Positions 1,863-63,945 of a DNA stretch of 64,000 nt are shown piece by piece. The notes below the pieces were generated by a model. That model was not told where the DNA came from, did no database searches, and saw only the letters and a program-made list of their open reading frames with translations. The stretch comes from a virus: the IMG/VR virus record IMGVR_UViG_3300029374_000001, positions 32,001 through 96,000 of that record, one strand, 5' to 3'. Position numbers and translations under genes: made by a program. Each line of letters starts with the position of its first letter. The first letter of the stretch is position 1.

Positions 1863-2037
1863 AGATTTTCTCTCCTATCATATTTTTACACATTTTCTAT
1901 GATACGTCCCTCGTAAAATCTTGTCAGTTATTTCATTTCATCTTCTTAAACTCCTTTTCTATAATTCGTTTACTTTCTGAGAACTCTTAATAAAAAGTTC
2001 CATTCTAAATCAATCTCGATTATATAATATATATTTG

Positions 2038-2083
2038 AATAAAAATATAAAAAGAGAGGTAGAGACTCATATGAGTCTCTACC
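2038..2083 (-). terminator. rho-independent terminator: palindrome GGTAGAGACTCATATGAGTCTCTACC (2058-2083) followed on the minus strand by TCTCTTTTTATATTTTT
   Basis: perfect 26-bp palindrome plus T-run, immediately downstream of minus gene 2186..2605. Confidence 0.6.
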
Positions 2084-2185
2084 AAAAGTCATAGCATATC
2101 AAAAGATTGTTTAAAAGATAAGAAGAACACAGCTGTGTGAAAACCAGTGTTCAAATAAAATCAAATAGAATATAAAATAAACATA

Positions 2186-2605
2186 TTAAGACGTAAAGTT
2201 CGTCTTGGAATAATATCTCGGATTGGTTTTAAGAATAGCCTTCTGGGCTTTGATAACATCACGTTTAACGTTGTTGCCATAACGGCGTACAATGTTAGCA
2301 ATAGCCTGCTTCTTAAGCATATGAGCTTTCTTCAAACGTTTCCAGTCAGCAGAATTAGACTCTTTGGCTTTCTGCATAGCAGCCAGCGTAATACGTCTAT
2401 TATAATCGTCAGTTCTGGAAAGACGGACGATTGTACGACGATTAACTGCTCCGCCTTCAACAAGAGCTTTAACTTCTGCGCTTTCCAAATACTGTACACG
2501 TTCTTCATCATCCATATGATTAACAAGATCAACAAACATTGATTCCAAGAGAGCGCCCATATCCTGGACTCCATCTCTCTCATTTTCATTATCGAGGAAT
2601 GACAC
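2186..2605 (-). CDS. hypothetical protein (139 aa)
   Basis: long ORF with codon usage like its neighbours; no recognisable motif. Confidence 0.5.
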   Translation of the reverse strand: MSFLDNENERDGVQDMGALLESMFVDLVNHMDDEERVQYLESAEVKALVEGGAVNRRTIVRLSRTDDYNRRITLAAMQKAKESNSADWKRLKKAHMLKKQAIANIVRRYGNNVKRDVIKAQKAILKTNPRYYSKTNFTS

Positions 2606-2748
2606 AGTATTTCACCTCCATTAGTGTTTTCAACATTCTTAATACATGACCACAATAAAATGTAGTTTAAATAAATGTTCTTATAATTGAATTAAAAAAT
2701 GATTTATTATAACACACTCCAATACATAGAGAAGAAAGGAGATATATA

Positions 2749-5352
2749 ATGAAACCTAGTCAAAGTATTGCTTTTCAAGATTATAAAGATACAATGAGAA
2801 GAAACATCAGATATTTATTTCCTCAATTAAGTAGTGACGAGTTGGAACGAGCTATAGAATATTCCATAAATAAGAGAATTATAAACTCAGCTTGTCAACT
2901 GAATGACACATATAAGAATGCTGTATATAATACTAATATGTTAGAATTAACAGAGTATATCATGCATGATCGACCAATACTGACATCCTTCGGATGTCTA
3001 TTTCATAGGCATGGAGATATAGATAATCCATTATACATGATGATACAAGAATTTGCAGATAGACGTAACAGATTTAAGAAAGAAATGCTAAAGCATAAAA
3101 AAGGTAGTGAGCAATATAAACATTTTGACTTAGCTCAAGCCGTCGCTAAGGTGGATGTCAATGCTGAAACAAACGCATTCTAATGCGTTTGGGATAGGCC
3201 TCTTTATAAAGTAATTTATAGAGAGAATCCTGGTGAATTGCTGGAAACCGGTAAAGATCTGATAACTACAATATATTTTTAATATATGAATGTGACGAAA
3301 GTCAGAAACAATATCAGATATAACCTAAGCTGAAATAAAAGAGTAGTATATATGAAATTCTTACTTATTTAAAAGAATATATATATTATTTGCTAAGGGT
3401 ATAATAAGAAAATCCGCAATCAGCAGCGAAGCTTCTATATATTATAGAAGAACGTTCAACGACTATTATGTAGAGTACAAGCGTATTCGAAGTGCCAGGC
3501 TCCAATATAATATTGGATGAAGATATAGTCTGTCCATGTATGAGAGTACATGAAGTTCATAAGAGAACTGGGTAGATGTAGCGAATCTATTCGAACACAT
3601 GAGATCTACGGCGCTATGGGGCAACCATCTTCTATATTTTATAACTTTGAAGTGGCAGCTTCCATTACCAGACAAGGAAGAGCTTCTATTGCAGCATCTA
3701 TTATGCTCTTTGAGTCTTTCTTAGCTAACAATATTAAATTTGGATCTTTGAACGAAGTGATTATGTTCATTGATCATATTGTATTAATGAAACCAACTAG
3801 ACAATATGAAGACCATCGAATCTTAGATAGAGATGTCTCTATCCAAGAAGTCTTTGATAAACTAATGAGTTCTTGTGGATATCGATGGAAACCAGATCAT
3901 ACAGAAGCCAATATTATCTGGAAAATTTTACATCAATTATCCCAATTTCATTTAAACAGACTCTATTATAAAAATAATATCTATGCTTTCTTTAATAATA
4001 CCGCACCCAAAGACTTCTTATTGGAGTTATTATATTCTTTGGATTCTCCATTTATCGATCCCAATTCTCCACCACCAATGATTAAGGCTAATTTGGATGT
4101 ATTGGTAGATATGGTCAAAGAGTATATTTATTATCCATATCAGATCATCGATAAAATAGAACGAGTAGAAACATTGTATCGTCAAATCGATTTAGTAACC
4201 GATACAGATTCTTGTATTATTTGTTTAAATCCATGGTATGAATATGTAGCCAATCTAACCAAAGATCTGGATATCGATCTGAAACATTATGAATTGGATA
4301 TAATTGGATTGTTGAATAAAGAAAATCCCAATGATGCATCTGATTTGAAAGAAGAAAGTAAAACAGAATATATCTACGATTTTAGAAATAAAGAAATTTT
4401 GGAAAGAAAACGATTAGTAGATCCATTTAAAATTATTCCAGAAGACGCTATGAGATATAGCATCATCAATATACTGGCATATATCATTAGTAAGCTATTA
4501 CGAGATTACTTCGATCGTATAAGCATTAAGAATAATGTAACTAATGATGCTCATAATTTTTGTTTGATGAATATGAAGAACGAATTCTTATTCTTACGGA
4601 TGTTATTGTCCGATGCTAAGAAGCATTATGCGTCTATTGTAGAACTTCAGGAAGGTCATAAAGTTCCCTTAGATAAGCAATTAGATATTAAAGGATTACA
4701 GATTGATAAGTCTGTTGTACCAGAATCTACTAAAGAAGCTCTTGGAAATATTTTACATGAAGATGTATTACGACCAAATTATATTGATCAAATGAAGATC
4801 ATCAATAAATTGGCTGTTCTGGAAAAGACCATCTATGATGATATCTATAATGGCGGATTGAAATACTATAGTCCTAAAAAGCTTAAACCATTTGTTACAT
4901 ATAAGAATCCAATGAGTACACAGCAGGTTAAAGCTTCTATTGTTTATAACTTATTTAGAGATGAAGATGAGGCATATATCAATATTGATGAAAATAATTC
5001 TGTATTGATTATTGGAGTTAATATTGATGCTCATTCATTAGAATCTTGTAAACTAAAAGAATCGGATCCTGAGAAATATGAAATCATGAGAAAGATTATT
5101 TATGAGAATCCAGTAATTGAAGTTTCTCAGAATAAAATTGCTGTGAAGATATTCAATGATAATCTAGCTCTAAATAGTCGAAAAATTACTAGTATAGCTA
5201 TTCCTAGAGATAGTCAAACACCTAAATGGATACTAGAGTTTATTGATTATGCCAGCATAGTTAAAGATAATATCGGTACCTTCCCATTGAAGAGTATTGG
5301 TATTACTAAGCTAGATACGAACAGTGCGTACAGTGGCATTATCAATCTATAA
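2749..5352 (+). CDS. family B DNA polymerase, C-terminal portion (fingers, motif B, motif C, thumb). Two exons, about 2749..3165 and 3604..5352, separated by a group I intron. The N-terminal exonuclease and motif A are not encoded here, so this is a split polymerase gene
   Basis: Own RBS AAAGGAG and ATG at 2749. Exon 1 ends '...FADRRNRFKKEML...AQAVAKVDVNA'. Exon 2 starts 'IYGAMGQPSSIFYNFEVAASITRQGRA'. Together these reconstitute Pol B motif B (KxxxNSxYG...A.SIT..GR). Motif C 'LVTDTDSCII' lies downstream. The in-frame TAA at 3181 and the ORF-less 3184..3549 are intron sequence. Confidence 0.7.
3166..3603 (+). ncRNA. group I self-splicing intron, ORF-less, in the DNA polymerase gene. The 3' boundary after G3603 is fairly firm; the 5' boundary is approximate
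   Basis: Canonical core elements: P-like 'GAATTGCTGGAAACC' (~3230), Q-like 'AATCCGCAATCAGCAGC' (~3410), R 'GTTCAACGACTA' (~3452), S 'GAAGATATAGTCTGTCC' (~3521). Phase-0 insertion splitting motif B. Homologous along its length to the intron at 49447..49845. Confidence 0.75.
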
Positions 5353-5361
5353 GGAGAAAAT

Positions 5362-5916
5362 ATGTTTACAAATAATGAAAAAGAAATTTTAAGAACAATA
5401 ATCAAAGATTGTAAGAAAGCTAATATTTCAAGATCTGCTATATTTGAATTTCTAAAATGGTATTTGTTTGTCGATTATACTTGTAATAATATAGATAGTT
5501 TTATTATGCGGTTCCATAAGTTGTCTTCTATAGATTTCAGTATATTCAATACTGATATTCTTAGAACAATAGCTGTTCATGTATCTCAATTCTTTATAAA
5601 TTCTTATATAATAGCAAATGCTATGGAATCTATTCTGAAAATAGGTGAACCAATATCAACAAAGCAAGTAATAAATACATATCATGAATTCATTGATAAA
5701 ATTAATCATAATCAGAAGATTCCAGTTATTGCTATAATTCACAATAAGCCTACAAATCAGCATACATATATAGTATTAAATAATATATCCGATGATTGCG
5801 ATTCTATTGAAGATTTGGATCTTTCTGACAACGCATTATCTTTTACTATCAATTTTATCAAAGATCATTATAACGATATTCAATCTAAGATAGACGAAAT
5901 ACAAAAAGCATATTAA
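5362..5916 (+). CDS. hypothetical protein (184 aa)
   Basis: ORF with RBS GGAGAAAA 6 nt upstream. Confidence 0.5.
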   Translation: MFTNNEKEILRTIIKDCKKANISRSAIFEFLKWYLFVDYTCNNIDSFIMRFHKLSSIDFSIFNTDILRTIAVHVSQFFINSYIIANAMESILKIGEPISTKQVINTYHEFIDKINHNQKIPVIAIIHNKPTNQHTYIVLNNISDDCDSIEDLDLSDNALSFTINFIKDHYNDIQSKIDEIQKAY

Positions 5917-5929
5917 TTTGTATCATTAT

Positions 5930-5959
5930 AATCCATAGACTCATATGAGTCTATGGATT
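5930..5959. terminator. bidirectional hairpin AATCCATAGACTCATATGAGTCTATGGATT between convergent genes
   Basis: perfect 30-bp palindrome between + gene 5362..5916 and - gene 5976..6410. Confidence 0.55.
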
Positions 5960-5975
5960 ATATGTGTAATTTTTT

Positions 5976-6410
5976 TTAATGATTATCTTTTTTATTTTTA
6001 ATTTCTTCTAAAAGTTTACGAGCACGTTCTCTAGCCTTAGGTAAATTCTTATTAATGAAATCATCATACTTTTTAATTTTGGGATCATTTTGCAATCCTT
6101 GACGTACTCTATCATGCCCACTTTTGAAATGAGATACAATTCGATTATACTCCGTATCATCATGCCGACGGGTTTTATCGTTTGTATGTTTCTCAGAGTT
6201 ATGTTTCGCTTCGTCTTCTATTTTACGAACGTTCCGATTAAAAATAGATCTTGCATTATCTTTAAGAGTAGACTCATCAGCTTCCATATATACATTACAT
6301 TCATCTTCTAATGAATATTCATTAGATTCTAACATACTTTCTAATTCATCACATGCATTATTATATCCTTCTATATAAGCTTGTTCTAAATCTTCTTTTG
6401 TATATAACAT
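5976..6410 (-). CDS. hypothetical acidic protein (144 aa) carrying the shared 'ESNEYSLEDECNVYME' module
   Basis: ORF; the module is repeated almost identically at nucleotide level in gene 8448..9194. Confidence 0.5.
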   Translation of the reverse strand: MLYTKEDLEQAYIEGYNNACDELESMLESNEYSLEDECNVYMEADESTLKDNARSIFNRNVRKIEDEAKHNSEKHTNDKTRRHDDTEYNRIVSHFKSGHDRVRQGLQNDPKIKKYDDFINKNLPKARERARKLLEEIKNKKDNH

Positions 6411-6604
6411 AGTTTAATATACCTCCTATAATATGATGATTATTATGATGTATAAAAAAAAAGAATAATCAAATAATCCATAATATTTTATTAAAAAAGA
6501 ATATTTATTGTTAAAATGGAATCTATCTTTTTTTCAATTATATATTATATAGGTGTAATAACCATAATAAATTTACATTTATTTTTAAAAGGAGGATAAT
6601 TATT

Positions 6605-7024
6605 ATGGATAATAAAACACTTATTACAAAACTCTTGGCAGACAAAACGGTTCAGCAAGGATTAGAAGTATTTATCAAAGCCAAATCATTATTTAATTTG
6701 CTTGATATAGAAATTAATCCATTTGATCGATATGTAAAAAAATATATACATATCGATTCGCTAACCAATGGTTTGAATGAAAATCAGATATTTAATCTGA
6801 AAAACAGAATATTTGAATTTATTATTAATCATCGAGACGATAAAAAGGATATTGAATTGAATGCGATAGCAGGAGATAATAATAACTTTATTCTTGAAGG
6901 AGAAAATAAGAAATTCTACGTATTCTACAACATTGGGTCAGAGCCAAGAGTAACAGTAACCAGCAGTAAAACGGATGCATTTGAAATTATGCGGAAAAAA
7001 CCATCTTTACTGATAGGTTACTAA
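6605..7024 (+). CDS. hypothetical protein (139 aa)
   Basis: RBS AAAGGAGG upstream of the ATG; followed by terminator 7033..7062. Confidence 0.5.
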   Translation: MDNKTLITKLLADKTVQQGLEVFIKAKSLFNLLDIEINPFDRYVKKYIHIDSLTNGLNENQIFNLKNRIFEFIINHRDDKKDIELNAIAGDNNNFILEGENKKFYVFYNIGSEPRVTVTSSKTDAFEIMRKKPSLLIGY

Positions 7025-7032
7025 AAATAAAA

Positions 7033-7062
7033 GAAGGGTATATACCCTTCTTTTATTTTTTA
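7033..7062 (+). terminator. rho-independent terminator AGAAGGGTATATACCCTTCT plus T-run
   Basis: perfect palindrome followed by TTTTATTTTTT after the stop of 6605..7024. Confidence 0.6.
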
Positions 7063-7070
7063 TAAAAAAT

Positions 7071-7102
7071 ATATCCAGAGGTTATATAACCTCTGGATAT
7101 AT
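7071..7102 (-). terminator. hairpin ATATCCAGAGGTTATATAACCTCTGGATATAT downstream of minus gene 7113..8234
   Basis: perfect 32-bp palindrome. Confidence 0.5.
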
Positions 7103-7112
7103 AATAAACACA

Positions 7113-8234
7113 TTATACTATAGTAATATCTACACTTTCATCGTGACTCTTTACAGCATATGCAGCTCTACGTTTCAGACCTTTAAGAGTTGCACCAAGA
7201 GCAGACTTATATACACTCATAAGAGTAGATGCGATAGCCTGTCCAACGGTTGCTACAGCGCTATGAATAATGGTCAACCCAGAACTAATGTATTTAAAAA
7301 GAACACTCAGAGTCTTATTAATTCCAGCTTTAATATTCTTCTGTCCTTCTTTTTTAATTCCAAGAAGTTCTTTAGTTTTCTTTTCAACGACTTTCTGGAT
7401 TTCATTTACATTCTTAAGATCCCAACTATGAAGTTTCATAACGCCATCATAGGCTTTATCAAGATTCTTCAAAAGATCATTAGAATAAATCTCTTTGAAA
7501 TTCTTTTCGGATGGAGCAATCGTTTTCTTTTCAATGAGTTTTTCTTTTAACTCAGAGATAAAGTTCTTTCCATCCAACCCCGGGAAGAAACGCTCATAAA
7601 CCAGTTGTCTAATATCATCAGAACCAATATTCTGTTTAACAATATCCATCACATCAGAAATTGCCTGGTTATTTGAATTGTTGCTAGCAGTTTTAAATGC
7701 CGCTTTAGCAGTAGCTTTAGCTTCGTCAGGAATAGAATCTTTCGGAATCGAATTCAAAATCTGTTCAACAATAGCCGGGGTAATTTTAACACCCTTTGGA
7801 ACGTCAGGAATATTTGCAATAAGTTTTGCAACATTTGCTGCGTTAAGGCCATTATATTCGATTTTTTCGTTTTCCATTTTCTTAGCATTAGTATGATTCT
7901 TAACGAATTCACCAATAGTTTTGAAAGCTTTAGCGGCGGCCATTGTTAATTTGCGACGAAGCATCATGAAGAATGCTTTAACTTTTGCCAAAACTTTTTT
8001 AATCAGTTCAAGAATCCAGTTGAAGAACTGCTTAATACGTTTCCAAATAGCATCAAATGCATCGCCAATAACATTTTCCTGCTGAACGCTCAGTTCACCA
8101 TATTCGATGCCTTCTTCAAGAGCAATCAGATTATGTGTGGATTCAACAACCATAGCCATAGCACCATCAGTACCTTCATAGCTGAAGTCCGGTTCTACAG
8201 CTTCTACGAATGATCTAATTTCATCATCGTACAT
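7113..8234 (-). CDS. hypothetical Lys/Ala-rich helical protein (373 aa), possibly a head-internal or scaffold-type protein
   Basis: ORF; low-complexity K/A/E composition; sits in a structural-looking block. Confidence 0.45.
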   Translation of the reverse strand: MYDDEIRSFVEAVEPDFSYEGTDGAMAMVVESTHNLIALEEGIEYGELSVQQENVIGDAFDAIWKRIKQFFNWILELIKKVLAKVKAFFMMLRRKLTMAAAKAFKTIGEFVKNHTNAKKMENEKIEYNGLNAANVAKLIANIPDVPKGVKITPAIVEQILNSIPKDSIPDEAKATAKAAFKTASNNSNNQAISDVMDIVKQNIGSDDIRQLVYERFFPGLDGKNFISELKEKLIEKKTIAPSEKNFKEIYSNDLLKNLDKAYDGVMKLHSWDLKNVNEIQKVVEKKTKELLGIKKEGQKNIKAGINKTLSVLFKYISSGLTIIHSAVATVGQAIASTLMSVYKSALGATLKGLKRRAAYAVKSHDESVDITIV

Positions 8235-8447
8235 GTTAACTTTCCTCCAATCATTTTAGTATTCTTCATATAGAAGAAATTTAGAGAATTTTTAGTATAT
8301 TCATAGAATATACCAGAATAAAATAGTTAGATCTATAAATAGATCAAATTATATTATACTAATTACTCACTCAGATTGGGGATGAATGAATATCTTCGTA
8401 AATAATTATCTAATATACTTAAGTGTTATCTATATAAATTAAGATTC

Positions 8448-9194
8448 TTAATCTTTACTTGGTTGCAATAAAGCTTGTTCTAATGCTGTATAATCTTCTT
8501 CATTAGATTCCATATACATATTACATTCATCTTCTAATGAGTATTCATTAGACTCTACACCAAAGAATAATTTCTTGGCCATCTGTTTGAGTCCATGACC
8601 AGAAATGCTAGCATCGACTAATTTAAGTTTTACACCAGCTCTTTTGCATATTTTATCAAATGTAGTCAATTCGGATTTAATACCAGTCTGTTTAGCAAAA
8701 GAAGTAGCTATAGGTTTCTCCCAAGAAAATGGGTCTTTCTTAAACATACCACCATGCTGAGCGTAAGGAGATGGAATTACTTTATCGCCTCCAAATGTAG
8801 CTTTAGCTACAGATGCACTAGGGCATTGTAAGAATACAACATCCGCATTCTTTTCTCTATCATACCAATCTTTATCTACGACAAGAATTTTCTTTTTCTT
8901 ATCATATTCTATAGAACGAATATGATTATAATCTACCCATCTAAATAATGCATCTGCTGGTGTATCGGCACTATATACAGACACAATACGATTATACATT
9001 GCCAATGGAATTATAAAACCAGGACCAACAATAGAAATACCATGAATAAGAGTACCCCAGCTTCTAGCCGAAACAATAGCATATTGTTTCTTATTATCTC
9101 CAGATTCTAAATAATAATCGCAATCATTTTCTAAAGAATATTCTAACAATCCGCGTTGATTTTCATCTTCTAATCTAAATTCTAAATCTTCCAT
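8448..9194 (-). CDS. hypothetical protein (248 aa) with the 'EYSLE(N/D)(D/E)C(D/N)xY(L/M)ES' module at both termini
   Basis: N-terminal 'LLEYSLENDCDYYLES' and C-terminal 'ESNEYSLEDECNMYMES'. The C-terminal copy is ~90% identical in DNA to 6290..6340. Confidence 0.5.
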   Translation of the reverse strand: MEDLEFRLEDENQRGLLEYSLENDCDYYLESGDNKKQYAIVSARSWGTLIHGISIVGPGFIIPLAMYNRIVSVYSADTPADALFRWVDYNHIRSIEYDKKKKILVVDKDWYDREKNADVVFLQCPSASVAKATFGGDKVIPSPYAQHGGMFKKDPFSWEKPIATSFAKQTGIKSELTTFDKICKRAGVKLKLVDASISGHGLKQMAKKLFFGVESNEYSLEDECNMYMESNEEDYTALEQALLQPSKD

Positions 9195-9211
9195 AATAAT
9201 TGACCCTTATA

Positions 9212-10063
9212 TTAACTATACTTCTGGCAGAATTTATCTATCTGATTTTCCACAAATCTACCAAGAGGAACAACAATTGTTTCATAAGATTCTGTCACCA
9301 TAGTAACAGATTTTTTATCTTCAGATAAAGTAATGCTCTTATAAATGGGAGAGAAGTCATTGCAGATCTGATAGAAGCTATAAGACTCTTTAATCAACAA
9401 GTCTACTACATCCTGATTCATAACAGGAGCTACAGCTTCAAATCCTTCTTTAACAATCTGCTGATTACCTTTAGAAGTAATCATATGATCTAAAGAATCT
9501 CCTTCAAATCCAGCAGATTCAGAAATAATGCGATTGGTATACGCATTATCATAAGATGGATAATAGACTCTATCATAAGTAACAATTCTTAAATTAGTTA
9601 CATTGGACTGCCCATTAACAATCTTGATAGAACCTAGGCTTCTTAATGAATAGGATGGCTTCTGTCCAGCTTTCAAATCTTCATTAAACGCTCTGCCGAG
9701 TTCGTTATTAGTTCCTCTGACATGAGCTTTAACATAATCTCCATCCATCCATAACTTAGTATACCAGACTTGCTCCAAAGTGGGGTCTACTTTCTGCTGT
9801 CTGGCTAAGTTCATATCCAACGGATGACCAGCTTCTCCTTTAAAGTTGCCAGTGCTTACCAATTCTCTGATACGATCAGAGTAAATTTCTTTACGCAAAT
9901 CTGCTTCTGTATAATAACGTCTGTTTCTATTTAATTTCATTGCCTGTTGTAGTGTACATTCAGCAACCAAGAAGCCATTATCATTACGAATTACGTCGCA
10001 AGAGACGCAATCTGCAACCCCTTCGTTGATAATATATGCTACAGGTTTATCTGATATTGGCAT
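9212..10063 (-). CDS. hypothetical protein (283 aa). A head-maturation protease is a possibility from position only, not supported by motifs
   Basis: ORF upstream of the acidic scaffold-like gene; contains 'GEAGHP' and 'SLRSLGS' but no confident protease signature. Confidence 0.4.
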   Translation of the reverse strand: MPISDKPVAYIINEGVADCVSCDVIRNDNGFLVAECTLQQAMKLNRNRRYYTEADLRKEIYSDRIRELVSTGNFKGEAGHPLDMNLARQQKVDPTLEQVWYTKLWMDGDYVKAHVRGTNNELGRAFNEDLKAGQKPSYSLRSLGSIKIVNGQSNVTNLRIVTYDRVYYPSYDNAYTNRIISESAGFEGDSLDHMITSKGNQQIVKEGFEAVAPVMNQDVVDLLIKESYSFYQICNDFSPIYKSITLSEDKKSVTMVTESYETIVVPLGRFVENQIDKFCQKYS

Positions 10064-10130
10064 AAGATATAACCTCCTTTATGTATTAGCAATTATAATT
10101 ATGTTTCAGTAGTAAAACTGTCAGAAGATA

Positions 10131-10156
10131 AGAAGAGATCTATATAGATCTCTTCT
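10131..10156. terminator. hairpin AGAAGAGATCTATATAGATCTCTTCT
   Basis: perfect 26-bp palindrome in the intergenic gap. Confidence 0.45.
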
Positions 10157-10177
10157 ATATTTCTTTTTTATAATAAA

Positions 10178-11446
10178 TTAGTTCTTAGCCATAGCTGCCT
10201 TATTTACATCCTGAGCCAGATCAAACATCTTTTCTTCTTCTCTTCCAACATTCAGGGAATCCTGAGAATTAAACGAGCCAGAAGGTTCATCTACATTCTT
10301 ATCCATTCCTTTCAGGAATCCTTTAGAACGTTCAGTTTCTGCATTGATATCAGAGCCTTCAAAATCATTAAACATTTCTACATCGTCCAGATCATCAGTA
10401 CCCATAGCATCAAACAGATCTTCTACCGCTCCATCAGAAGACATATCTTTACCTTTAACGTCTTCATTGGATACTTCCACACTATCTTCCAGTTCTTCAA
10501 AAGTTTCTTCCAAGCTGGCATTCAAATCTTCATCTTCAAACATATTTAAGTCTCCTTCTTCATGGGATTCAATTATTCCGGGTCTAGTTCCATCTGTTAA
10601 AGGAACAACAGGCCCTGCAGGCTCATTAGCCGGTGCATTGCTGCTGGTCAGATCGACCGTAGTATGTTTTTCTGGTGTATTATCAAACATATCGGGTTCT
10701 ACATCATCCAGATCAGTATCATCGTCGATGTCATCTTCAATATCGATATTGGGAGGAAGAACGGCATCATCATTATGATCTAAGCTGGCACCCTGTTTAG
10801 GATCAGCATCAGTCAAAATAGACCCAGGCACGTTATCTGTACCGGTATCATTATCTTCTGTCGGATTCATTTTAAATATAGGAGCATCCGATTTTACACC
10901 ATCATCTCCTAAGATTTCTCCATCCGTATCTACATCTTTGTCTACCAATTCTGTAGTATGGGGAGCTGTATGAGGAACATGAGCATCTCCACATTCACAA
11001 GGAGCATGATGACAGAATTCACATACTTTACCAGTATTTTCATCATTCAAAGAAAACGGAATATCTCCTACATCTTCATTAATTACTTTATCTACGTAAT
11101 CATAAATAGAAGCCCCTTCTTTGAGATCTTTAATATCATCTTTAGTTACAAGAGCATTGGCACTAACATCCTGCTCCAATTCTTGAATCTCTTTATCCTG
11201 TTCTGCTTCTCTGGCATCTACATCTACTGGGTCATAATCTCCCGGTTCTTTGCCAGCATCAATATCTTCAATATCTTTATCAGAAATCAGAACGTTATCT
11301 GTAATTCCAATAACAGCATCAAGAGCCTGATCATCTACTTCAGTAGAAGCTTCAAAGTCTACATCAGCATCTTCTTCGGCTGATTTATCTAAGACTACAT
11401 CGATAGCATCTTGTGCAGCTTCCATAATAGAATCAAAATCTACCAT
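10178..11446 (-). CDS. extremely acidic (D/E-rich) 422-aa protein with a Cys/His cluster 'CEFCHHAPCECGDAHVPHTAPH'. Scaffold-like or internal head protein candidate
   Basis: composition: long runs of D/E and few hydrophobic cores; single metal-binding-like cluster. Confidence 0.5.
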   Translation of the reverse strand: MVDFDSIMEAAQDAIDVVLDKSAEEDADVDFEASTEVDDQALDAVIGITDNVLISDKDIEDIDAGKEPGDYDPVDVDAREAEQDKEIQELEQDVSANALVTKDDIKDLKEGASIYDYVDKVINEDVGDIPFSLNDENTGKVCEFCHHAPCECGDAHVPHTAPHTTELVDKDVDTDGEILGDDGVKSDAPIFKMNPTEDNDTGTDNVPGSILTDADPKQGASLDHNDDAVLPPNIDIEDDIDDDTDLDDVEPDMFDNTPEKHTTVDLTSSNAPANEPAGPVVPLTDGTRPGIIESHEEGDLNMFEDEDLNASLEETFEELEDSVEVSNEDVKGKDMSSDGAVEDLFDAMGTDDLDDVEMFNDFEGSDINAETERSKGFLKGMDKNVDEPSGSFNSQDSLNVGREEEKMFDLAQDVNKAAMAKN

Positions 11447-11467
11447 TATATTATAATCCTCCTTCGA

Positions 11468-11668
11468 TTAATCTCCCAATTTTTCAAGTAAAACGGGATC
11501 TGTTATTTCTGTAGGAAATAAATTATCTAATTGTTCTTCCAAATAAGAACCATTATAAATATCTTCGTCTATAGCGAGATCTTCCACCATGGACACAGAT
11601 ATTTCAACATGATCTTCTTCATTCATGGTTTCATTAATGAGATCGACAAAACCATCCTTTAGATCCAT
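11468..11668 (-). CDS. small acidic protein (66 aa)
   Basis: ORF with upstream RBS; acidic. Confidence 0.35.
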   Translation of the reverse strand: MDLKDGFVDLINETMNEEDHVEISVSMVEDLAIDEDIYNGSYLEEQLDNLFPTEITDPVLLEKLGD

Positions 11669-11729
11669 CTCTCTATCTCCTTTCTATAGTCAAATAGATT
11701 TAATTATATGTTTATAATAAGCATTTTAA

Positions 11730-13250
11730 TTAGTCGGAAGGCTTATCTGTACAAGTTAAGCACCCTTTAGGACAGGAACGGAGAGATAAATTACCAGGAG
11801 ACCCATTAGATTTCTGAGATGATGGATCTTCCATAGAATTATTTGATGATGATGTACTAGGAAGATTGTTGATTGTCTGCTGTAGAATATAGATCAGCAT
11901 AGGAATTGCATAATATAATTCTTTACAAGGTTTGAAATCAATATTATTGATATCTGCAATCATTGTATATGTAATAGGCAATCCGGCAAAGTAATTATAA
12001 ATAATCTTATAGTACTTCTTATAATTAGGAAGCTTAGCCAATATATCTTGACAAGAGCATCCACATGGACAAGAAGAACTCTTAGGATCTTCGTTAGAAT
12101 ACCCTGGTAAGAGATTAATCATATCTGTATCAAATAACGGAATCTTCTCTAATAATGGAGAACCAAATGGAGATCCATCATCATCTCTATATGTAATCAT
12201 ATAGTATGGTTCAATACGATGTGTTAAGAGAGACATTGGATCTTGTACCAACATACCATAGCCATCATAATAACAAACTGTTGTATTGAGCGGATCTTCT
12301 AATAATCTAAAGATTGTTTTATTATAATCAATATGTAAATACATCGGCGGTAATGCTGGCTGAGATACATGGATATAGGGTACTCTGGATACTGAGAAGA
12401 TCTTATGTCTAATTAAGAACTCTATCAAGTACGGATCATAGAAAAAATAATCCCAGAATCCATATTTAAATACAAATGTCTGTGTAGATTGCTGGAAGAA
12501 CAATTCCACATAGGCTTGTTTCAACATCTCTATCAATTGGTTATACGAATTCATTAGGTTAAATGTATTCATATCAACCAATACATTATTATTGGATCCT
12601 GAAGAGGATGTATTCGGACCTGTACCAGATTTACCAATATTATCTGCCATATATTGGTATTCGTTGATTACTTGCGGATTGATATTTTCCCCAATAGATT
12701 CTAACTTATAAGAGATCTTATAAAAATTAGAACCATTTGGGAATGTATCTATATTGACAGAAGTAACGCGGAAGAGTACTTCTCTTCCAGATTTATTGAT
12801 ATAATCAATAGAGAAATAAGAATGCTGATAAGGAATAAATGTATTCGGAGGTAAATAAGCTTCTCCTTCTATTGGATCGGCTTCTGCGCCCCATTCTCCC
12901 ATATCAATGGATAATTCCATATTCTGAATGCCATAGAGAATAACTCCATTGATTTTATCAAATCTAAATCCGGATGCTGGTCCTATGAAATTATATGCAT
13001 TATCAATTACTTCATCTAATGTGGTATGTTCTTTATTGATATTATAGAACGTAACCTTAGTCATAGATAAATTATTGAAAAAATAAAACGGGTTATCTGT
13101 AATACGATTAATACTGGAATTGGTAAGAGACTCTACAATATTTGTTCTCTGATTCCCATTATTGGAAATAGAAGTTGCTGCAATGGTAGAGTTGTTTGTT
13201 ATTCTTGGTTGCGAGGGGTTAAGAATAGTTTGTTTGCTAAAAGAACCCAT
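11730..13250 (-). CDS. hypothetical protein (506 aa), probable virion structural protein
   Basis: long ORF; N/S/T-rich N-terminus; Cys clusters 'CPCGCSC' and 'CPKGCLTC'. Confidence 0.45.
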   Translation of the reverse strand: MGSFSKQTILNPSQPRITNNSTIAATSISNNGNQRTNIVESLTNSSINRITDNPFYFFNNLSMTKVTFYNINKEHTTLDEVIDNAYNFIGPASGFRFDKINGVILYGIQNMELSIDMGEWGAEADPIEGEAYLPPNTFIPYQHSYFSIDYINKSGREVLFRVTSVNIDTFPNGSNFYKISYKLESIGENINPQVINEYQYMADNIGKSGTGPNTSSSGSNNNVLVDMNTFNLMNSYNQLIEMLKQAYVELFFQQSTQTFVFKYGFWDYFFYDPYLIEFLIRHKIFSVSRVPYIHVSQPALPPMYLHIDYNKTIFRLLEDPLNTTVCYYDGYGMLVQDPMSLLTHRIEPYYMITYRDDDGSPFGSPLLEKIPLFDTDMINLLPGYSNEDPKSSSCPCGCSCQDILAKLPNYKKYYKIIYNYFAGLPITYTMIADINNIDFKPCKELYYAIPMLIYILQQTINNLPSTSSSNNSMEDPSSQKSNGSPGNLSLRSCPKGCLTCTDKPSD

Positions 13251-21284: not shown

Positions 21285-22049
21285 TTATACAATAATACTA
21301 TCCCAAATTGACTGCAATTCTGTTTTAGATAATTCTACGAAATCATCCTTATTCAGTTTCTTGTCTAATTCTGTATTGACCTGTGCTTTGGTATAATAAT
21401 TGGTAGCCTGATTTGTTGATACGACGGCAACCTTATTATCTACATACAACTTAATTCCCTTAGACTTAACGGGGTTATCAGAATTCTCTGTTGGATCATT
21501 ATCAAAGGTTAACTTATCTTGTTTGCCTGATATATCTTGATGTGTAGTCAAATAATTTTTATCATTAGTTAACTGAGATACTTTGGTAGGAATATCAGAT
21601 TTATCCGCCTTATTAGTATTTACTACGGCAATTTTATCGTCCACATATTTCTTAATTCCTTTAGACTTTACAGGATTATCGGAACTATCTGTAGGATCAT
21701 TATCGAACGTTAATTTATCCTGTTTACCAGAGATATCCTGATGAGTAGTTAAGAATCCAGCATCATTTGTCAATTGAGATGTTTTTGTTAAAATCTCAGA
21801 ACGATTGGCTTTATCAGAAATAGCAGCTGTTACATAAGTCTTTGTAGCATAATTGGTTAAATCAACTGTACCACTGGTTACTGTATCATCTACATACTTC
21901 TTGATGCCTTTGGATGTAACAGGATTTGTTGAGTTATCTGTAGGAGCCTCATCAAACGTTAATTTATTCTGCTTTGTATTAGCCAAATTGCCAATATTTC
22001 TAATTAAATCTTTAAGTCGTTCTTCGCCTATAAAATGTTGTTCTGCCAT
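21285..22049 (-). CDS. tail fibre protein with 3 tandem ~45-aa repeats 'ISGKQDKLTFDNDPT(D/E)(S/N)SDNPVKSKGIK(K/L)YVD'
   Basis: internal repeats visible in the translation; C-terminal 'LSKTELQSIWDSIIV' shared with paralogs. Confidence 0.6.
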   Translation of the reverse strand: MAEQHFIGEERLKDLIRNIGNLANTKQNKLTFDEAPTDNSTNPVTSKGIKKYVDDTVTSGTVDLTNYATKTYVTAAISDKANRSEILTKTSQLTNDAGFLTTHQDISGKQDKLTFDNDPTDSSDNPVKSKGIKKYVDDKIAVVNTNKADKSDIPTKVSQLTNDKNYLTTHQDISGKQDKLTFDNDPTENSDNPVKSKGIKLYVDNKVAVVSTNQATNYYTKAQVNTELDKKLNKDDFVELSKTELQSIWDSIIV

Positions 22050-22076
22050 AATATATTCCTTCTTCCTTTATTGTTT

Positions 22077-23393
22077 TTAACTAATAATGCTGTTCCAAAT
22101 AGATTCAAATTCTGATTTAGTCATCTCTTTAAATTCTCCAACCTGTACAGCTGCTATTTTACTATCTACTTCTGATTTATTATAATAATTAGAAATATTA
22201 ATAGCTTTCTTAGTATCGTCAATAGCTTTCCATACGCCACCAGAATATACAGGATTGCCAGAATCTTTAGTCGGATTTTCATCAAAAGTTAGTTTATCTT
22301 GTTTAGTAGCTATAGCTGCTGGCAAATCTGCTGTTTTCATATAGACACTTAATTCAGACTTATCTGCTTTAGCTTGTAATGCATTATAAATGCCTTTAGA
22401 CTTAACAGGATTATCTGATGTGGCACTAGGAGCATCATCCATTGCGCCAAATAAACTTAAATTATTAATAGCCGTAGTAATCGATGAATCTACATAAGAC
22501 TTAATTCCCTTAGACTTTACAGGATTATCAGAAGCAGCCGTAGGGGCTTCATCATATGTTAATTTGTCTTGTTTCAGAGTCAGCTTATTATTTACTTCTG
22601 TAGTCTTAGCATATTCTGCCAATTTAGCATCTACATCTGCTGGCTTAACATATTTCTTAAATTCATTAAAAATACCTTTAGACTTAACTGGATTATTTGA
22701 TAGGTCAGTAGGAACTTCATCAAAAGTCAATACGTCCTGTTTACCAGAAATATCTTGATGACTTGTTAAGAAACCCACATCATTGGTAAATTCAGATAAC
22801 TTTGTATGTAAGTCAGTCTTCTTAGCATAATCTTTAAATGTATTAAAGATACCTTTAGACTTAACAGGATTATCAGAATTCTCTGTGGGAGCATTATCAA
22901 AGGTCAACTTATCTTGTTTATTCTGTACTGCTGTAGATAATGCTGTCGTTGTTACCAGATTAGTTAATTCAGATTTATCTGCTTTAGTCTTAATTGCATT
23001 ATATACTCCACCGGATGTTACAGGATGCAATGAATTCTCTGTAGGAAGACTATCAAAGGTCAATATATCCTGTTTCAAAGCCAATGCAGATGTAACAGAA
23101 GAGTTCATAGCATAAGGAGTTAAAGCAGAAGTCAGTTCAGACTGTTTAACACAATTGGTCAATGCGTCATATACTCCATCAGATGTAATCAAGTTATTTG
23201 ATCCATCTGTAGGAGTACTATCTATACCGATAGTATTCATTTTACCATTTAATCTGGTATCTACTTCTGATTTATTATAATACTTATCTGCTAAATCTAC
23301 CACTTGAGAAGTTTCTGTTTCCGGATGTATTCCAGCAACCGTATTGTCTTTTAATCTGGTTTTTAATAATGCTTTCTTTTTTTTCATAGCCAT
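22077..23393 (-). CDS. tail fibre protein (438 aa) with ~7 copies of the same 'QDKLT(F/Y)D(E/N)xPTxxSxNPVKSKGI' repeat
   Basis: repeats; C-terminal 'MTKSEFESIWNSIIS'. Confidence 0.6.
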   Translation of the reverse strand: MAMKKKKALLKTRLKDNTVAGIHPETETSQVVDLADKYYNKSEVDTRLNGKMNTIGIDSTPTDGSNNLITSDGVYDALTNCVKQSELTSALTPYAMNSSVTSALALKQDILTFDSLPTENSLHPVTSGGVYNAIKTKADKSELTNLVTTTALSTAVQNKQDKLTFDNAPTENSDNPVKSKGIFNTFKDYAKKTDLHTKLSEFTNDVGFLTSHQDISGKQDVLTFDEVPTDLSNNPVKSKGIFNEFKKYVKPADVDAKLAEYAKTTEVNNKLTLKQDKLTYDEAPTAASDNPVKSKGIKSYVDSSITTAINNLSLFGAMDDAPSATSDNPVKSKGIYNALQAKADKSELSVYMKTADLPAAIATKQDKLTFDENPTKDSGNPVYSGGVWKAIDDTKKAINISNYYNKSEVDSKIAAVQVGEFKEMTKSEFESIWNSIIS

Positions 23394-49200: not shown

Positions 49201-51144
49201 TTATCTGGCATACTTTTTCTTCAAAGCAATAATCTTATCCATTTGTGTGGGTGTATACTTGTTTCTGGATAAATAGATCAATGCATTTGAATTAATCAAG
49301 GTATCTTTGAATACATTCATAGAGTTATTGAATTTCCCATCATCTCTGGAAATCATCATAGCATTTCTGGGATCAAATACTTCTTGTGCAGACTTCCAAA
49401 ATTCATCATTGACGATATAAATAATATTAAGTGTATCTCCATCGAACGTTGTGGTCAAATAGATTCGCTACATCTACCCAGTTCTCTTATGAACTTCTAT
49501 ATACTTTCATATACAGACCAGACTATATCACATCCATAATTGTATGGAGCCTTGCATTTCGAGTACGCTGTACTCTACACCCCGCGACGGGTTAGTCGTT
49601 GAACCTGTTTGAACAGGTGCTGATTGTCCATTTTCTCATTATACCCTTAGCAAATTAGATATATCTCTTTAATAAGTAAGATTTACATATATCTAACTCT
49701 TGTATTTCAGCATAGGTTATCTTATAAATCGTTTCTACTTTCGTAACCATATAGGTTTTGTAAGCTTTAGGAGTTTCCAGCTTTTAACAAGGTTACTCAC
49801 ACATGTTACCATATATGAGGACTTTTGTATTTTCTAAATACGTTAATCCGCAGCAAATGACGACAATACCTGTAATGGCATACCCATAGTATAATTATCA
49901 TTTATTCCGATACACTTCATAGCTTTGATGGAACCATAATCAATTGTCGGGTTCCTGTTAATAAGTACTGGTATACCACCATCGCTAGTCGCAATGATAT
50001 TTTCAATAATATCTCGGATTCGTTGATCGGGCACAATCTGAGCTTGTTTAAATCTCATATATGCATCATTATACCCAATATTATACGTTCGAACCAAGAT
50101 ATTGATGATTGTTTGTTGTAATAACTCTAAGAGTGTATGATAACTCAATGTGACTTGATTAACTCTTAGGGTTGGATCTGGAACAATAACAGACCGAGAT
50201 GTAAAACTACATCTGCCTCCTATCAGATTTCTTATAATACCTTTCTTACCAGAACAGATATTAACGACTTCTGTGTACAAAGCATTGTATCGATCCTGCA
50301 TATTCCATAGAATAACATTTCTGTATTTAGGAATGTTATACATAGACAACTTATCATTTCTAATCATAGCAGCAATCTTAGCCATCATATTAAAGATCGC
50401 ATTTGTTTCTTCAAAGGTAAATCTGGTTCCTTCTACTTTAAATGGTCGTAAACCTGTAGAATATACTGGTACATTATGAATGAATACTTTTTCTCTATTC
50501 TTCATAATGTCTTTATAGTAGTCTTCTTTCTTACCTTTGAATTTACTATGATAATATTCCATAATCTCATCAAACTTCTGTTCAAATTCAATGAGACCAA
50601 TACCTTTATAGGTATCGTCTAACTTTGTTTTTCTATATTTTCTTTTAGTCTGAGATTGAACTAACTTAGAACTATATTTTTGTATAGGATTTCCATTGGC
50701 ATCCAAATCAATCTCTGGTTGAATGATAGATTCTAATAGCTGTTGCCCTAAATACTTAGATAAAGACTGATAGATATTTGGATGAATGATAGCATACTTT
50801 CCAGTAGGAATCCATCCTGTAATACTGAAGTCTTCTCCAACGAACTTAACTTTAGTTCTACATCTAGGGCAAATCATTCCCTCATTATTTTTGCCCTGTA
50901 ATTCTTTACAATCACAAGAATATCGATCTGCATATGCATCGGGATCTTGTAATGTTTTCATATACTTTTCAGAATAAATCGAGTCGGATCTGGATAACGT
51001 TTTCTTAATATCCAATGGTTCGCTGATAATGAAACCTTTACCAGATTCCATATCTTTTTCTTTTTCTTTGTCTAAATCAATTCTCTCCAATCTTGTTGTA
51101 AATTTACATCCTTCTGGATATTTTACATTTAGATTGATTTCCAT
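49201..51144 (-). CDS. multisubunit RNA polymerase beta-prime subunit, N-terminal portion (split subunit). Two exons, 51144..49846 and 49446..49201, joined across a group I intron
   Basis: N-terminal Zn finger 'CDCKELQGKNNEGMICPRCRTKV'; 'GKKGIIRNLIGGRCSFTSRSVIVPDP' matching '[22 protein letters not shown]'; 'VLINRNPTIDYGSIKAMK'. Exon 1 ends '...FAAD' and exon 2 begins 'FDGDTLNII', restoring the catalytic NADFDGD motif. Confidence 0.75.
49447..49845 (-). ncRNA. group I self-splicing intron (ORF-less) inserted in phase 0 inside the codons of the RNAP catalytic DFDGD motif
   Basis: minus-strand R 'GTTCAACGACTAA' (~49590-49602), S 'GATATAGTCTGG' (~49525), P-like 'GCTGGAAAC'. The 3' ~40 nt 'AGTTCATAAGAGAACTGGGTAGATGTAGCGAATCTATT' are nearly identical to intron 3166..3603. 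The exon U precedes the 5' splice site and the intron ends in G. Confidence 0.75.
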
Positions 51145-55184: not shown

Positions 55185-56438
55185 TTATTTTAAATTAAAT
55201 GCTTTATTTATATCTATATCATGTAGCTTAACAGTGGAATCATGAAAGGCCTTTAGGCTCAAAACTTTTAGTGTACTAGCAACCTGAGGTGCGGCTGTTC
55301 CGATGTTCTCATATCCTGCTCTATAAAACAAATTACCAGCACACGCATTACAGATTTGGTTATTGGTGTGATATTCACATAAAGAAGCAAATCTAAACTT
55401 TACTTTCTTATTCAGATATTTATCTAAATTTTCTGAAGTTAGTTCTACTAGTTTGTTTCCTTCTACTATATAAGAATACATCATCATATCCGCATACTGT
55501 TTGGTTAAAGTGATTTCTATTGTTCTTGAAGTCCCACAATCAGAGCCTTTTGGGGCTAGTGTTAAGTGCTGGAAGGCTCTAAGAAATAACTTCTCCCAGT
55601 ATCCACCTTTAGGGGTCTTTTTAGCTCTAGAATAAGGCCCTGCTGCTAATGAACGAGCCATAGCAGAATAATCTTCTTTTGATACGCCATCCATATAGTT
55701 AGATTTAACTACGGTATATCCTTTAGTAGGATCGGGATCTTTCATAGCGCCCTTCATTACAAAGATATTCTTAAAGTTATTAGAGAAAGATCCTTTAGCT
55801 TTAGAGTCATACATATCCATAGATACATCATTCTTTAGTTCTTGTTTAGCATAGTCTAATAATTCTTTCTCTATCTTATCTGCGGCATACATATTCTTCA
55901 TAGGATCAGCTAATTCATCTTTATATTGTTTGAAAAGCTGATCCTTCTTCTTATTGATCTTAGCAGACATATTCAGCATATTTGTAGTAAATCCAGAACA
56001 TAGGATATTACAATATGGCTGGAACTTCTGCTGTCTCATTAAATATCTCTTCAATACTTCTACAGCGATCTTATCTTCCATTAAAGCAAAAGACAACTTC
56101 TTATTTATATCACCCAATACATCATCATCAATTGGTTTATTGATATAATGGAAAAGATCAAACAAGTCTTGTTCTATGAATGTCTTATTCCACCACCATC
56201 TTCCTACTGTGGTAGTAAAAGAATTCTTATTCTTCTTATTTCCAGGACCATAAGAATTTGGTGGAATAGTAATGATATCATAGGTATGAAATCTAGGTTC
56301 TTTTCCATCTAGTGTGCCAAATGTTTCCATCATAGCAGATAGAGATTCTAATTGTAATTGTGATAGATTAAGAAAATAATCAATATCTTCTTTTTTCTTT
56401 ATAATCTTAGGAATTCTGACATTTGTTTTAGTAGCCAT
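55185..56438 (-). CDS. second RNA polymerase beta-prime-like polypeptide (bridge helix through region G/Zn site), paralogous in function to the product of 1..1862
   Basis: 'MKGAMKDPDPTKGYTVVKSNYMDGVSKEDYSAMARSLAAGPYSRAKKTPKGGYWEKLFLRAFQ...GSDCGT' matches '[64 protein letters not shown]...DDCGT'. 'CEYHTNNQICNACAGNLFYRAGYENIGTAAPQVASTLKVLSLKAFH' matches region G. Confidence 0.65.
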   Translation of the reverse strand: MATKTNVRIPKIIKKKEDIDYFLNLSQLQLESLSAMMETFGTLDGKEPRFHTYDIITIPPNSYGPGNKKNKNSFTTTVGRWWWNKTFIEQDLFDLFHYINKPIDDDVLGDINKKLSFALMEDKIAVEVLKRYLMRQQKFQPYCNILCSGFTTNMLNMSAKINKKKDQLFKQYKDELADPMKNMYAADKIEKELLDYAKQELKNDVSMDMYDSKAKGSFSNNFKNIFVMKGAMKDPDPTKGYTVVKSNYMDGVSKEDYSAMARSLAAGPYSRAKKTPKGGYWEKLFLRAFQHLTLAPKGSDCGTSRTIEITLTKQYADMMMYSYIVEGNKLVELTSENLDKYLNKKVKFRFASLCEYHTNNQICNACAGNLFYRAGYENIGTAAPQVASTLKVLSLKAFHDSTVKLHDIDINKAFNLK

Positions 56439-63537: not shown

Positions 63538-63945
63538 TTAGTATTTCAGCAAATCTGCAATCTTAACATCTTCTCCCCAAACTTCTTGGAGATCTTCTAA
63601 AGTTAACGGAATAAAATCTTCTTTCTTCAGATAACCACTCATATCTAGTTTCTGAGTACCCAAGATTTCCCAATTATTATCTACAAAAATATATTCTGTA
63701 AATAAGTTATTGAGATGAGCATCTGGTCCTTTGAGCAAATATATTGTGTCTGTAGAAATATTTTCTGTAGGAAGCATATCTACCACTTTGAAAGAAAGCT
63801 TCGGAATTGTAGAAACTTTAGAATCTACATATGTTTTAATTCCTTCAGAAGTTACAGGATTCTTGCTGGATTCTGTCGGAACAGCATCAAATATAAGTTT
63901 ATCCTGTTTAGCTTCTAAATCTTCTTTTTTAACAAAATGATTCAT
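63538..63945 (-). CDS. small tail-fibre paralog (135 aa) with one 'KQDKLIFDAVPTESSKNPVTSEGIKTYVD' repeat and the shared C-terminal 'LEDLQEVWGEDVK' tail
   Basis: repeat and C-terminal tail shared with 21285..22049 and 22077..23393. Confidence 0.5.
   Translation of the reverse strand: MNHFVKKEDLEAKQDKLIFDAVPTESSKNPVTSEGIKTYVDSKVSTIPKLSFKVVDMLPTENISTDTIYLLKGPDAHLNNLFTEYIFVDNNWEILGTQKLDMSGYLKKEDFIPLTLEDLQEVWGEDVKIADLLKY

Follow-up and report, generated by a model that had tools for sequence, protein, structure and literature searches.

Why does the DNA polymerase gene of a giant phage read as two open reading frames (ORFs), with the break falling inside motif B? The question is raised by positions 2749-5352 of a 64,000-nt stretch of viral DNA, hereafter the window, which covers positions 32,001 to 96,000 of IMG/VR record IMGVR_UViG_3300029374_000001 and is A+T-rich (G+C 28-38%). 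We conclude with high confidence that this interval is a single gene, that its product is the C-terminal, 'catalytic' subunit of a divergent family-B DNA polymerase which, by homology, comes in two pieces in this AR9-like uncultivated giant phage, and that a 438-nt group I intron devoid of any ORF lies inside motif B (Table 1).

Left unspliced, the locus holds an ORF of 144 aa (2749-3183), closed by an in-frame TAA at 3181-3183, six codons into the intron, and one of 600 aa (ATG 3550 to 5352), which arises by in-frame read-in from the 3' end of the intron. Joining nucleotide 3165 to 3604 (3165^3604; the caret marks splice junctions throughout) keeps the frame and yields a 721-aa product, ...AQAVAKVDVNA^IYGAMGQPSSIFYNFEVAASITRQGR..., with the junction peptide VDVNAIYGAMGQ and a restored motif B, KVDVNA^IYG (AKVDVNA^IYGAMGQ...AASITRQGR). 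This product matches Pfam PF20286 (E 1.1e-33) and PF00136 (E 3.4e-14) as well as DNA polymerase PHROGs. Across 39 homologues, K134 of motif B (encoded at 3148-3150), N138, Y141, G142 and D339-T340-D341-S342 are invariant, and AR9 g152 and 22 other homologues run unbroken across KVDxNAIYG. In parallel, the AlphaFold2 model of the spliced protein (pLDDT 82) finds its best Foldseek matches in RB69/T4 gp43 and Pol alpha, which supports a family-B fold and gives no residue-level answer.

Exon 1 has its own ribosome-binding site and ATG, as the initial annotation had stated, and since the gene upstream is divergent (2186-2605, minus strand), ATG 2749 is a true gene start. The exon had also been said to encode only the fingers region, which does not hold: about 90 family-conserved N-terminal residues come first, followed by the initial helix of the fingers and then by half of motif B (...KVDVNA). 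The fingers are placed by a PF00136 match at residues 97-176 and by PDB matches to family-B fingers at residues ~93-180 only. Exon 2 supplies the second half of motif B (IYGAMGQ), a long multi-helical insert that precedes motif C, motif C itself (DTDS, 4201-4212) and the thumb.

The same gene is also found without the intron. In the sibling allele L003, read at the DNA level on a 258-kb contig, the site is continuous, GTCAATGCG^ATCTACGG (the intron-less site sequence being GTCAATGCGATCTACGG), while the window has GTCAATGCT followed by 438 nt and then ATCTACGG. The sole difference in the flanks is at position -1, where L003 has G and the window T; the change is synonymous, and it supplies the U required for the U.G wobble of helix P1. 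The RNA polymerase site described below behaves likewise, with GAC in an intron-less relative and GAT in intron-bearing alleles, so that the -1 base of DNA-read intron-less alleles is G at the polymerase site and C at the RNA polymerase site, and T in every intron-bearing allele. In a search that covered 5.8 billion proteins, about 30 clusters of exactly 721 aa were 96-99% identical to the spliced query over 100% of its length, several of them on contigs of 256-262 kb. Nor is the interrupted allele rare, since a 600-aa cluster identical to the exon-2 ORF of the window has 115 member sequences. The proposed 3165^3604 junction is thus borne out by the frame, by L003 and by the uninterrupted clusters. 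Other boundaries were considered and rejected: 3164^3603 reproduces the intron-less DNA exactly, but it needs a C at -1 and an A at the omega position, and all 15 family copies end in G (omega-G); boundaries within the AATG/CATG repeat either replace Ala by Glu or put the sequence out of frame.

The inserted RNA has the anatomy of a group I ribozyme. Rfam model RF00028 (cmscan) aligns in full (model positions 1-253) to 3179-3552 of the plus strand with 61.3 bits (E 4.1e-13), the gathering score being 50, and no plus-strand ORF of at least 40 aa is present within 3184-3549. The P, Q, R and S elements that had been recognized in canonical order fall on P4, P4', P7 and P7'. The intron is therefore present as first described, with limits that required correction: it had been placed at 3184-3549 and in fact extends over 3166-3603.

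Helices were mapped from 15 related introns by RNAalifold, the Rfam alignment and RNAduplex, while P1, P10 and P8 were paired by hand. Compensatory changes are seen in P2, P3, P7.1, P7.2, P9 and P9.2. In particular, RNAalifold assigns double compensatory changes to 7/7 predicted pairs of P2 (14 copies) and to 17/30 predicted pairs of the 3' domain, and RNAduplex finds P3 kept across lineages as CCUAGUG/CGCUAGG, UUCAGUG/GUGCUGAA and CCUUGU/GCAAGG. P10 shows a compensatory change in distant polymerase-site copies (AAAU/AUUU), and at each of five insertion sites the guide has changed in step with the exon (GCU/GGC, GGU/GCC, GAU/GUC(C), UGGGU/GCCCA and GGUGAU/GUCACC). Judged by its helices, the intron appears subgroup-IA-like; P7.2 is present and P7.1 is absent, whereas P7.1 occurs in the RNA polymerase intron of the window (49591-49581) and in the related loci L013 and L015-L019.

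An alternative P1, favoured by RNAduplex, would pair exon AAUGC with intron GCAUU (3175-3179); it was discarded because it sets U3165 opposite a C and because the segment is missing in most family members. This segment belongs to a hairpin at 3170-3191 whose 3' arm, AATGCG, repeats the AATGCG of the intron-less exon junction and whose 5' arm, GCATT, is complementary to the AATGC at the end of the exon. Such a pairing is a possible competitor both of P1 and of the local hairpin.

That the locus is not spliced at all is scarcely credible. Translation would then give two polypeptides, one of 144 aa ending in ...VNAETNAF and one of 600 aa starting at ATG 3550 with an intron-encoded peptide, MKFIRELGRCSESIRTHE, so that the polymerase would be cut once more, in motif B, or the gene would be dead. 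Gene callers do predict exactly these two ORFs, and the polymerase of the clade already consists of two chains. The cut would, however, break the motif B helix halfway (KxxxNA^xYG), and ATG 3550 has no ribosome-binding site and lies inside P9. The gap between the ORFs holds a complete ribozyme core with covariation, the sibling DNA is continuous and differs by the exact insert, the 721-aa clusters match the spliced product, and the interrupted allele is abundant in an essential gene.

Several points nonetheless weigh against the overall reading. P1 has only 3 bp in the polymerase intron of the window, and the missing P7.1 together with the additional 22-nt hairpin in the P1 loop may lower its activity. 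The intron-less junction was read as DNA in one allele, the other 721-aa clusters being assigned from protein length and identity, and the splicing of 3166-3603 is predicted from anatomy. RF00028 misses the paralogue in the RNA polymerase gene and most family members, whose putative membership rests on the alignments made here. Finally, the N-terminal partner subunit was found neither in the window nor within 10 kb upstream in the sibling contig L130. With these points taken into account, a self-splicing group I intron within a single polymerase gene is still the reading that we favour.

Table 1. Coordinates of the polymerase gene, of its intron and predicted helices, and of the related intron in the RNA polymerase gene (window numbering).
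Feature	Position	Strand	Details and basis
Ribosome-binding site AAAGGAG	2735..2741	+	7 nt 5' of ATG 2749; read from sequence
Polymerase exon 1	2749..3165	+	139 codons, ends in U3165; translation, family alignment
Polymerase group I intron	3166..3603	+	438 nt, ORF-less, ends in omega-G 3603; Rfam RF00028, intron-less allele, covariation
Polymerase exon 2	3604..5352	+	582 codons + stop; translation, PF20286, AlphaFold2/Foldseek
P1	3163-3165 / 3197-3199	+	G3163-C3199, C3164-G3198, U3165.G3197 wobble; hand pairing
P1-loop extension hairpin	3170-3191	+	22 nt, CAAACGCATTCTAATGCGTTTG; in window-type polymerase introns
P10	3192-3195 / 3604-3607	+	GGAU with exon 2 AUCU; hand pairing
P2 hairpin	3200-3225	+	GUAA (GNRA) loop; RNAalifold, 14 copies
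P3	3229-3235 / 3493-3499	+	CCUGGUG / UGCCAGG; Rfam alignment
P4 (P / Q elements)	3239-3244 / 3420-3425	+	Rfam alignment
P5	3248-3251 / 3414-3416	+	Rfam alignment
P5 extension	3252-3413	+	162 nt, A+U-rich; modelled by Rfam as insertion, shorter in distant copies
P6/P6a hairpin	3426-3455	+	no ORF in window copy
P7 (R / S elements)	3461-3465 / 3526-3530	+	GACUA / UAGUC; RNAalifold
P7.2	3473-3488	+	RNAalifold
P8	3501-3517	+	hand check
P9 hairpin	3535-3552	+	GAGA (GNRA) loop; Rfam, compensatory pairs
P9.1	3554-3569	+	AGUUC-AUAAGA-GAACU; invariant, loop included, in 15/15 family copies
P9.2	3571-3591	+	covaries in family
omega-G	3603	+	
RNA polymerase beta' exons	51144-49846 and 49446-49201	-	
RNA polymerase beta' intron	49447..49845	-	399 nt; translation, alignment, family profile

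A second intron of the same family interrupts an RNA polymerase beta' gene on the other strand of the window. It splits ...SSFAAD^FDGDTLN... (junction DNA ...GCTGCGGAT^TTCGATGG...), opens with the stop TAA and has no ORF. Over this region RF00028 gives no match at E<=1, the only ones returned being chance matches (mir-46, RAGATH-12), and the identity of the element follows from its homology to the polymerase intron. Indeed, the family profile finds it with nhmmer at E 6e-105, and the two window introns are 72% identical over the shared columns of a 13-sequence alignment, in agreement with the earlier remark that they can be aligned along most of their length. The near identity of their last ~40 nt was also noted correctly: the 38-mer AGTTCATAAGAGAACTGGGTAGATGTAGCGAATCTATT occurs exactly twice in the window, at 3554-3591 (+) and 49495-49458 (-), where shuffles lead one to expect none, within a 3'-terminal block in which 40 consecutive columns are identical (permutation p < 5e-5). 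No third family copy was found in the 64-kb window (nhmmer --max).

Two further ORFs of the window touch on RNA polymerase. At its left end, 1-1860 of the minus strand is the N-terminal part of a large ORF that runs off the window; it has no Pfam match, contains the motif ...GHGICRRCYGELAY... and is syntenic with AR9 g154, the C-terminal part of the non-virion RNA polymerase beta'. A 417-aa minus-strand ORF at 55185-56438 has a weak RNA_pol_Rpb1_4 match (E 0.003) and is probably another RNA polymerase beta' fragment gene.

The shared 3' end had been taken to imply a recent spread of the intron between two essential genes, and a recent jump within this genome would account for the identical 38-mer. 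It would also fit with P9.2, which is identical in the two window introns and differs at 3 positions in the L013 orthologue, and with the RNA polymerase intron being nearer to the polymerase introns of this lineage (70-74%) than to those of distant lineages (59-66%). The overall identity of 72% is nevertheless far below that of orthologous polymerase introns within the species (91-97%); the window copy is 84% identical to that of L013 and 61-66% to those of distant lineages. Moreover, in every pair compared, conservation peaks in P9.1-P9.2, with 98% identity between the paralogues, 90% between the window and L013 and 85-87% between distant pairs, against 46-87% for the other segments, and P9.1 is invariant. 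Both sites are in addition occupied in lineages as distant as 50-68% identity in the host proteins: a homologous intron lies at the same RNA polymerase site in L019 (68% protein identity) and L020, and ORF-less homologues lie at the identical polymerase codon in L015-L018, four lineages with polymerases 50-60% identical. The RNA polymerase intron also looks fixed in the species, in which no intron-less allele was seen; the only match to the protein above 90% identity is a 433-aa exon-1 ORF, a cluster of 124 members, and the nearest full-length protein is 78% identical. A recent jump is on these grounds improbable. The RNA polymerase intron is an older paralogue, seemingly fixed in the species, and no fresh copy. 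The common 3' end is for the most part a conserved module of the whole family (P9.1-P9.2), which mainly reflects constraint, and it gives no evidence of recent spread.

Gene conversion between the two copies within the lineage, acting as concerted evolution on top of functional constraint, is a more plausible source of the exact 3' identity, although we give it rather less than even weight. The paralogues share 40/41 positions of P9.1-P9.2 against 37/41 for the window and L013, and the RNA polymerase intron is a mosaic, L013-like at its 5' start (TAAC...) and in P7.1 and window-like in P9.2. Recombination between phage T4 introns is established, as reportedly described by Bryk and Belfort in 1990. 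On the other hand, only about three P9.2 positions separate gene conversion from constraint combined with the divergence of L013, and no flanking tract accompanies them, as P9 upstream is 71% and the tail downstream 70% identical. Constraint on P9.1-P9.2 thus stays our preferred account.

Within one species-level group (94-99% identity), the polymerase site is found in three states, namely with no intron, with an intron lacking an endonuclease and with an intron that carries one, which is the pattern expected of the homing cycle of gain and loss. The intron has no ORF in L004, L010, L012 and L014; in L006/L011 and L013 an ORF of ~810 nt sits in the P6a loop, between positions equivalent to window 3427 and 3454. 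This ORF encodes a 275-aa endonuclease with Pfam NUMOD4 and HNH_3 domains, HNH_3 in L006 scoring 22.7 bits, just under the cutoff of 24.8 bits. Neither window intron holds a homing endonuclease ORF. The family was seen at five insertion sites, one in the DNA polymerase gene and at least four in RNA polymerase beta' genes. Only its window-type polymerase intron is detected by Rfam: RF00028 at its gathering threshold gave no match in L013 and L015-L018, loci that hold family members.

The sibling genome L009 (IMGVR_UViG_3300045988_113656) has an extra 1044-nt family intron at 2846-3878, at ...LINRN^PTIDY... of the same RNA polymerase gene, with a 213-aa NUMOD4 and HNH_3 ORF on the strand opposite to the intron; the site corresponds to about 49947/49952 of the window, which has no insertion there, and many database proteins end at this point (matches of 77% coverage). 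In L020 (ENA ERZ28563922 scaffold_1906), three tandem family introns at 3786-4866 lie inside the RNA polymerase NADFDGD motif and leave micro-exons of 11 nt (TAAATGCCGAT) and 12 nt (TTCGATGGTGAT), with a matching guide sequence in each intron. L024 is a 259-kb contig of a different phage (23% G+C); at 6396-7400 its polymerase N-subunit gene is split just 5' of motif A (...GA^...DMDLTALYPSII) by a family member with a 176-aa AP2-domain ORF, and the same 11 kb contain at least two further copies of the family.

As far as our search could show, no description of a family with the invariant P9.1 hairpin is to be found in the literature. A bolder reading is that the family is undescribed and unusually invasive, having moved repeatedly to at least five catalytic-motif codons of DNA polymerase and RNA polymerase genes in one giant-phage clade with its short guide retuned each time, and that the invariant P9.1 could be a family-specific functional module, for instance one that docks a protein cofactor or clamps the tertiary fold. 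This we consider rather unlikely; were it true, the family would lend itself well to studying whether group I introns arrive at new sites through reverse splicing or through retargeting of the endonuclease.

From this anatomy a course of splicing can be proposed. The pre-mRNA would fold into a subgroup-IA-like ribozyme (P1-P10 with P7.2, P9.1 and P9.2), in which the guide GGC (3197-3199) would pair with the exon end GCU (3163-3165). Free guanosine would attack 3' of U3165, and the freed 3'-OH of U3165 would in turn attack 3' of the omega-G at 3603, exon 2 being aligned by P10 (3192-3195 / 3604-3607). The outcome would be an mRNA for the 721-aa protein with motif B restored as KVDVNAIYG, while the stop at 3181-3183 would halt ribosomes that enter the unspliced intron. 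In evolutionary terms, the element belongs to a mobile intron family that has spread into codons of catalytic motifs in the polymerase genes of this phage clade. The endonuclease of the sibling alleles would be a homing enzyme of the I-HmuI type, with nicking activity predicted. As the window copy has no endonuclease gene, it cannot home on its own, and vertical descent, or else recombination or mobilisation in trans during co-infection, may account for its persistence.

The polymerase so reconstituted is, by homology, one of two chains. The spliced protein is co-linear with the stand-alone PF20286 family from residue 1, has no PF03104 match that would indicate an exonuclease domain, and shows no acidic residue conserved at >=90% before motif B among the 39 homologues that could represent motif A. 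Two candidates for motif A, AIEYSI (residues 35-40) and LNDTY (51-55), were rejected, as their acidic positions vary among homologues (E/N/D/Q and D/N, respectively). The expectation that the exonuclease and motif A belong to a separate polypeptide agrees with the relatives: the AR9 record lists g132 as 'DNA polymerase; contains DnaQ-like 3'-5' exonuclease and partial catalytic domain' and, separately, g152 as 'catalytic subunit', and the g132 homologue of Staphylococcus phage DC4 (UFVDC4_00046, 573 aa) has Exo I-III (FDIEVD, NLDYD, YNIKD) and, near its C-terminus, motif A DFDLSALYPSII. Motif A can also be read in the N-subunits of Goe21 (P0264) and L024. More than 400 N-subunit homologues of ~560 aa were found, many with PF03104 and one named 'DNA polymerase exonuclease domain protein'. 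That polymerases of this phage group have no fused exonuclease was already reported (Iyer et al. 2021, PMC7824862), and the split polymerase is a known, annotated trait of the group; for this phage, homology suggests the same two-piece arrangement.

The initial annotation had recommended searching the rest of the genome for the N-terminal gene and for further intron copies; in the window, neither an N-terminal gene nor a third intron copy was found. Searches by tblastn with DC4_00046 and with the AR9 g158 exonuclease found nothing in the window and the sibling loci, and a profile HMM built from 30 N-subunits gave no match below E 1 when the window was scanned in all six frames. No exonuclease emerged from Pfam scans of ten other window ORFs, and a degenerate motif-A DNA pattern had no match in the sibling contig. 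P0312, on a 259-kb contig, was set aside as a partner because it comes from a different phage with 23% G+C, and when viral contigs were scanned under guidance of the profile, generic family-B polymerases dominated the matches. The 10 kb upstream in L130 encode gyrase A, dUTPase and helicase. The dUTPase gene (L130:1555-2133) is near the polymerase and would lie upstream of the left end of the window; it is of note since AR9 and PBS1, the nearest cultured relatives, have uracil-containing DNA.

AR9/PBS1 and the Staphylococcus phages MarsHill, Madawaska and Machias belong to the same phage group as the window, the closest cultured relatives having 27% polymerase identity. The region 2000-12000 of the window has no DNA match among 50,697 phage records, so there is no close cultured relative. 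The gene order is nonetheless that of AR9, where beta'-C (minus strand), a small gene and polymerase-C follow one another as g154-g153-g152, and the protein is like the two-chain polymerase of the PhiKZ/AR9 type (PF20286; AR9 g132 + g152), with motifs B and C, no fused exonuclease, a long helical insert before motif C and nothing material that differs. The AR9 record gives g145 three exons and intron endonucleases. In AR9-like phages introns are common in RNA polymerase and DNA polymerase genes: multisubunit RNA polymerase genes have multiple introns, in Staphylococcus phages DNA polymerase subunit genes have them too, and their presence and position vary among strains (bioRxiv 10.1101/2020.12.14.422802). 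In contrast to the window, g152 of AR9 is uninterrupted, and in the Staphylococcus phages polymerase-C is split elsewhere, as in PB50, where the pieces of 342 + 298 aa meet near motif C.

Similar elements are familiar from other phages. In the Bacillus phages SPO1/SP82 and Bastille, too, a group I intron interrupts the DNA polymerase gene where it is conserved, and the nicking HNH endonucleases I-HmuI, I-HmuII and I-BasI, with NUMOD-type DNA-binding modules, have a counterpart in the sibling alleles described here; similar introns whose ORFs are divergent or absent are reported among related phages. Those polymerases, however, are of family A and not of family B, and the window copy has no ORF. 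Phage T4 has several related introns (td, nrdB and sunY, subgroup IA2) in different essential genes of one genome; they have P7.1/P7.2 and P9.1/P9.2, place any ORF in a loop of a peripheral helix, show a stop codon immediately 3' of the 5' splice site and vary in presence among close relatives. The T4 introns differ in their host genes and endonuclease families (GIY-YIG in td and sunY), and the window polymerase copy has lost P7.1. Gut 'Jug' phages carry ~18 group I introns per genome, with metatranscriptome support. In the giant phage PhiPA3, a group I intron with an HNH nicking endonuclease lies in the multisubunit virion RNA polymerase gene gp210 and is absent from a related phage, and a competitive function was shown for this endonuclease (Birkholz et al. 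2024, PMC11620839); the window introns, by contrast, have no endonuclease, and no competitive role can be claimed for them.

The remainder of the window contains repeats of other kinds and no tRNA genes. Minus-strand ORFs contain a ~91-nt repeat in nine copies that are 60-80% identical (21434-23075 and 63819-63909), and a 3208-aa ORF (27873-37499, minus strand) has several internal repeat families; both are probably repeated domains of structural proteins. Between 47289 and 48950, four copies of a ~65-nt A+T-rich intergenic repeat ending in TTAGATTACAAAA stand 5' of small paralogous minus-strand genes whose products resemble membrane proteins; these repeats may be promoter or regulatory elements.

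Collectively, the polymerase intron is ordinary for this phage group and belongs to a family, delineated here, of an element type that is well known, so that current understanding is unchanged. Its practical consequence concerns annotation: gene callers split the polymerase into ORFs of 144 and 600 aa, the 600-aa form accounting for 115 database sequences, and because Rfam misses most family members, polymerase and RNA polymerase genes of these metagenomic giant phages will be mis-annotated as fragments and their introns under-counted, while exact junctions permit the correct proteins to be reconstructed. In parallel, a single phage species offers a well-resolved population example of a site with no intron, with an intron alone and with an intron plus endonuclease, and the invasion of polymerase active-site codons by introns extends from cultured AR9-like phages to their uncultivated relatives.

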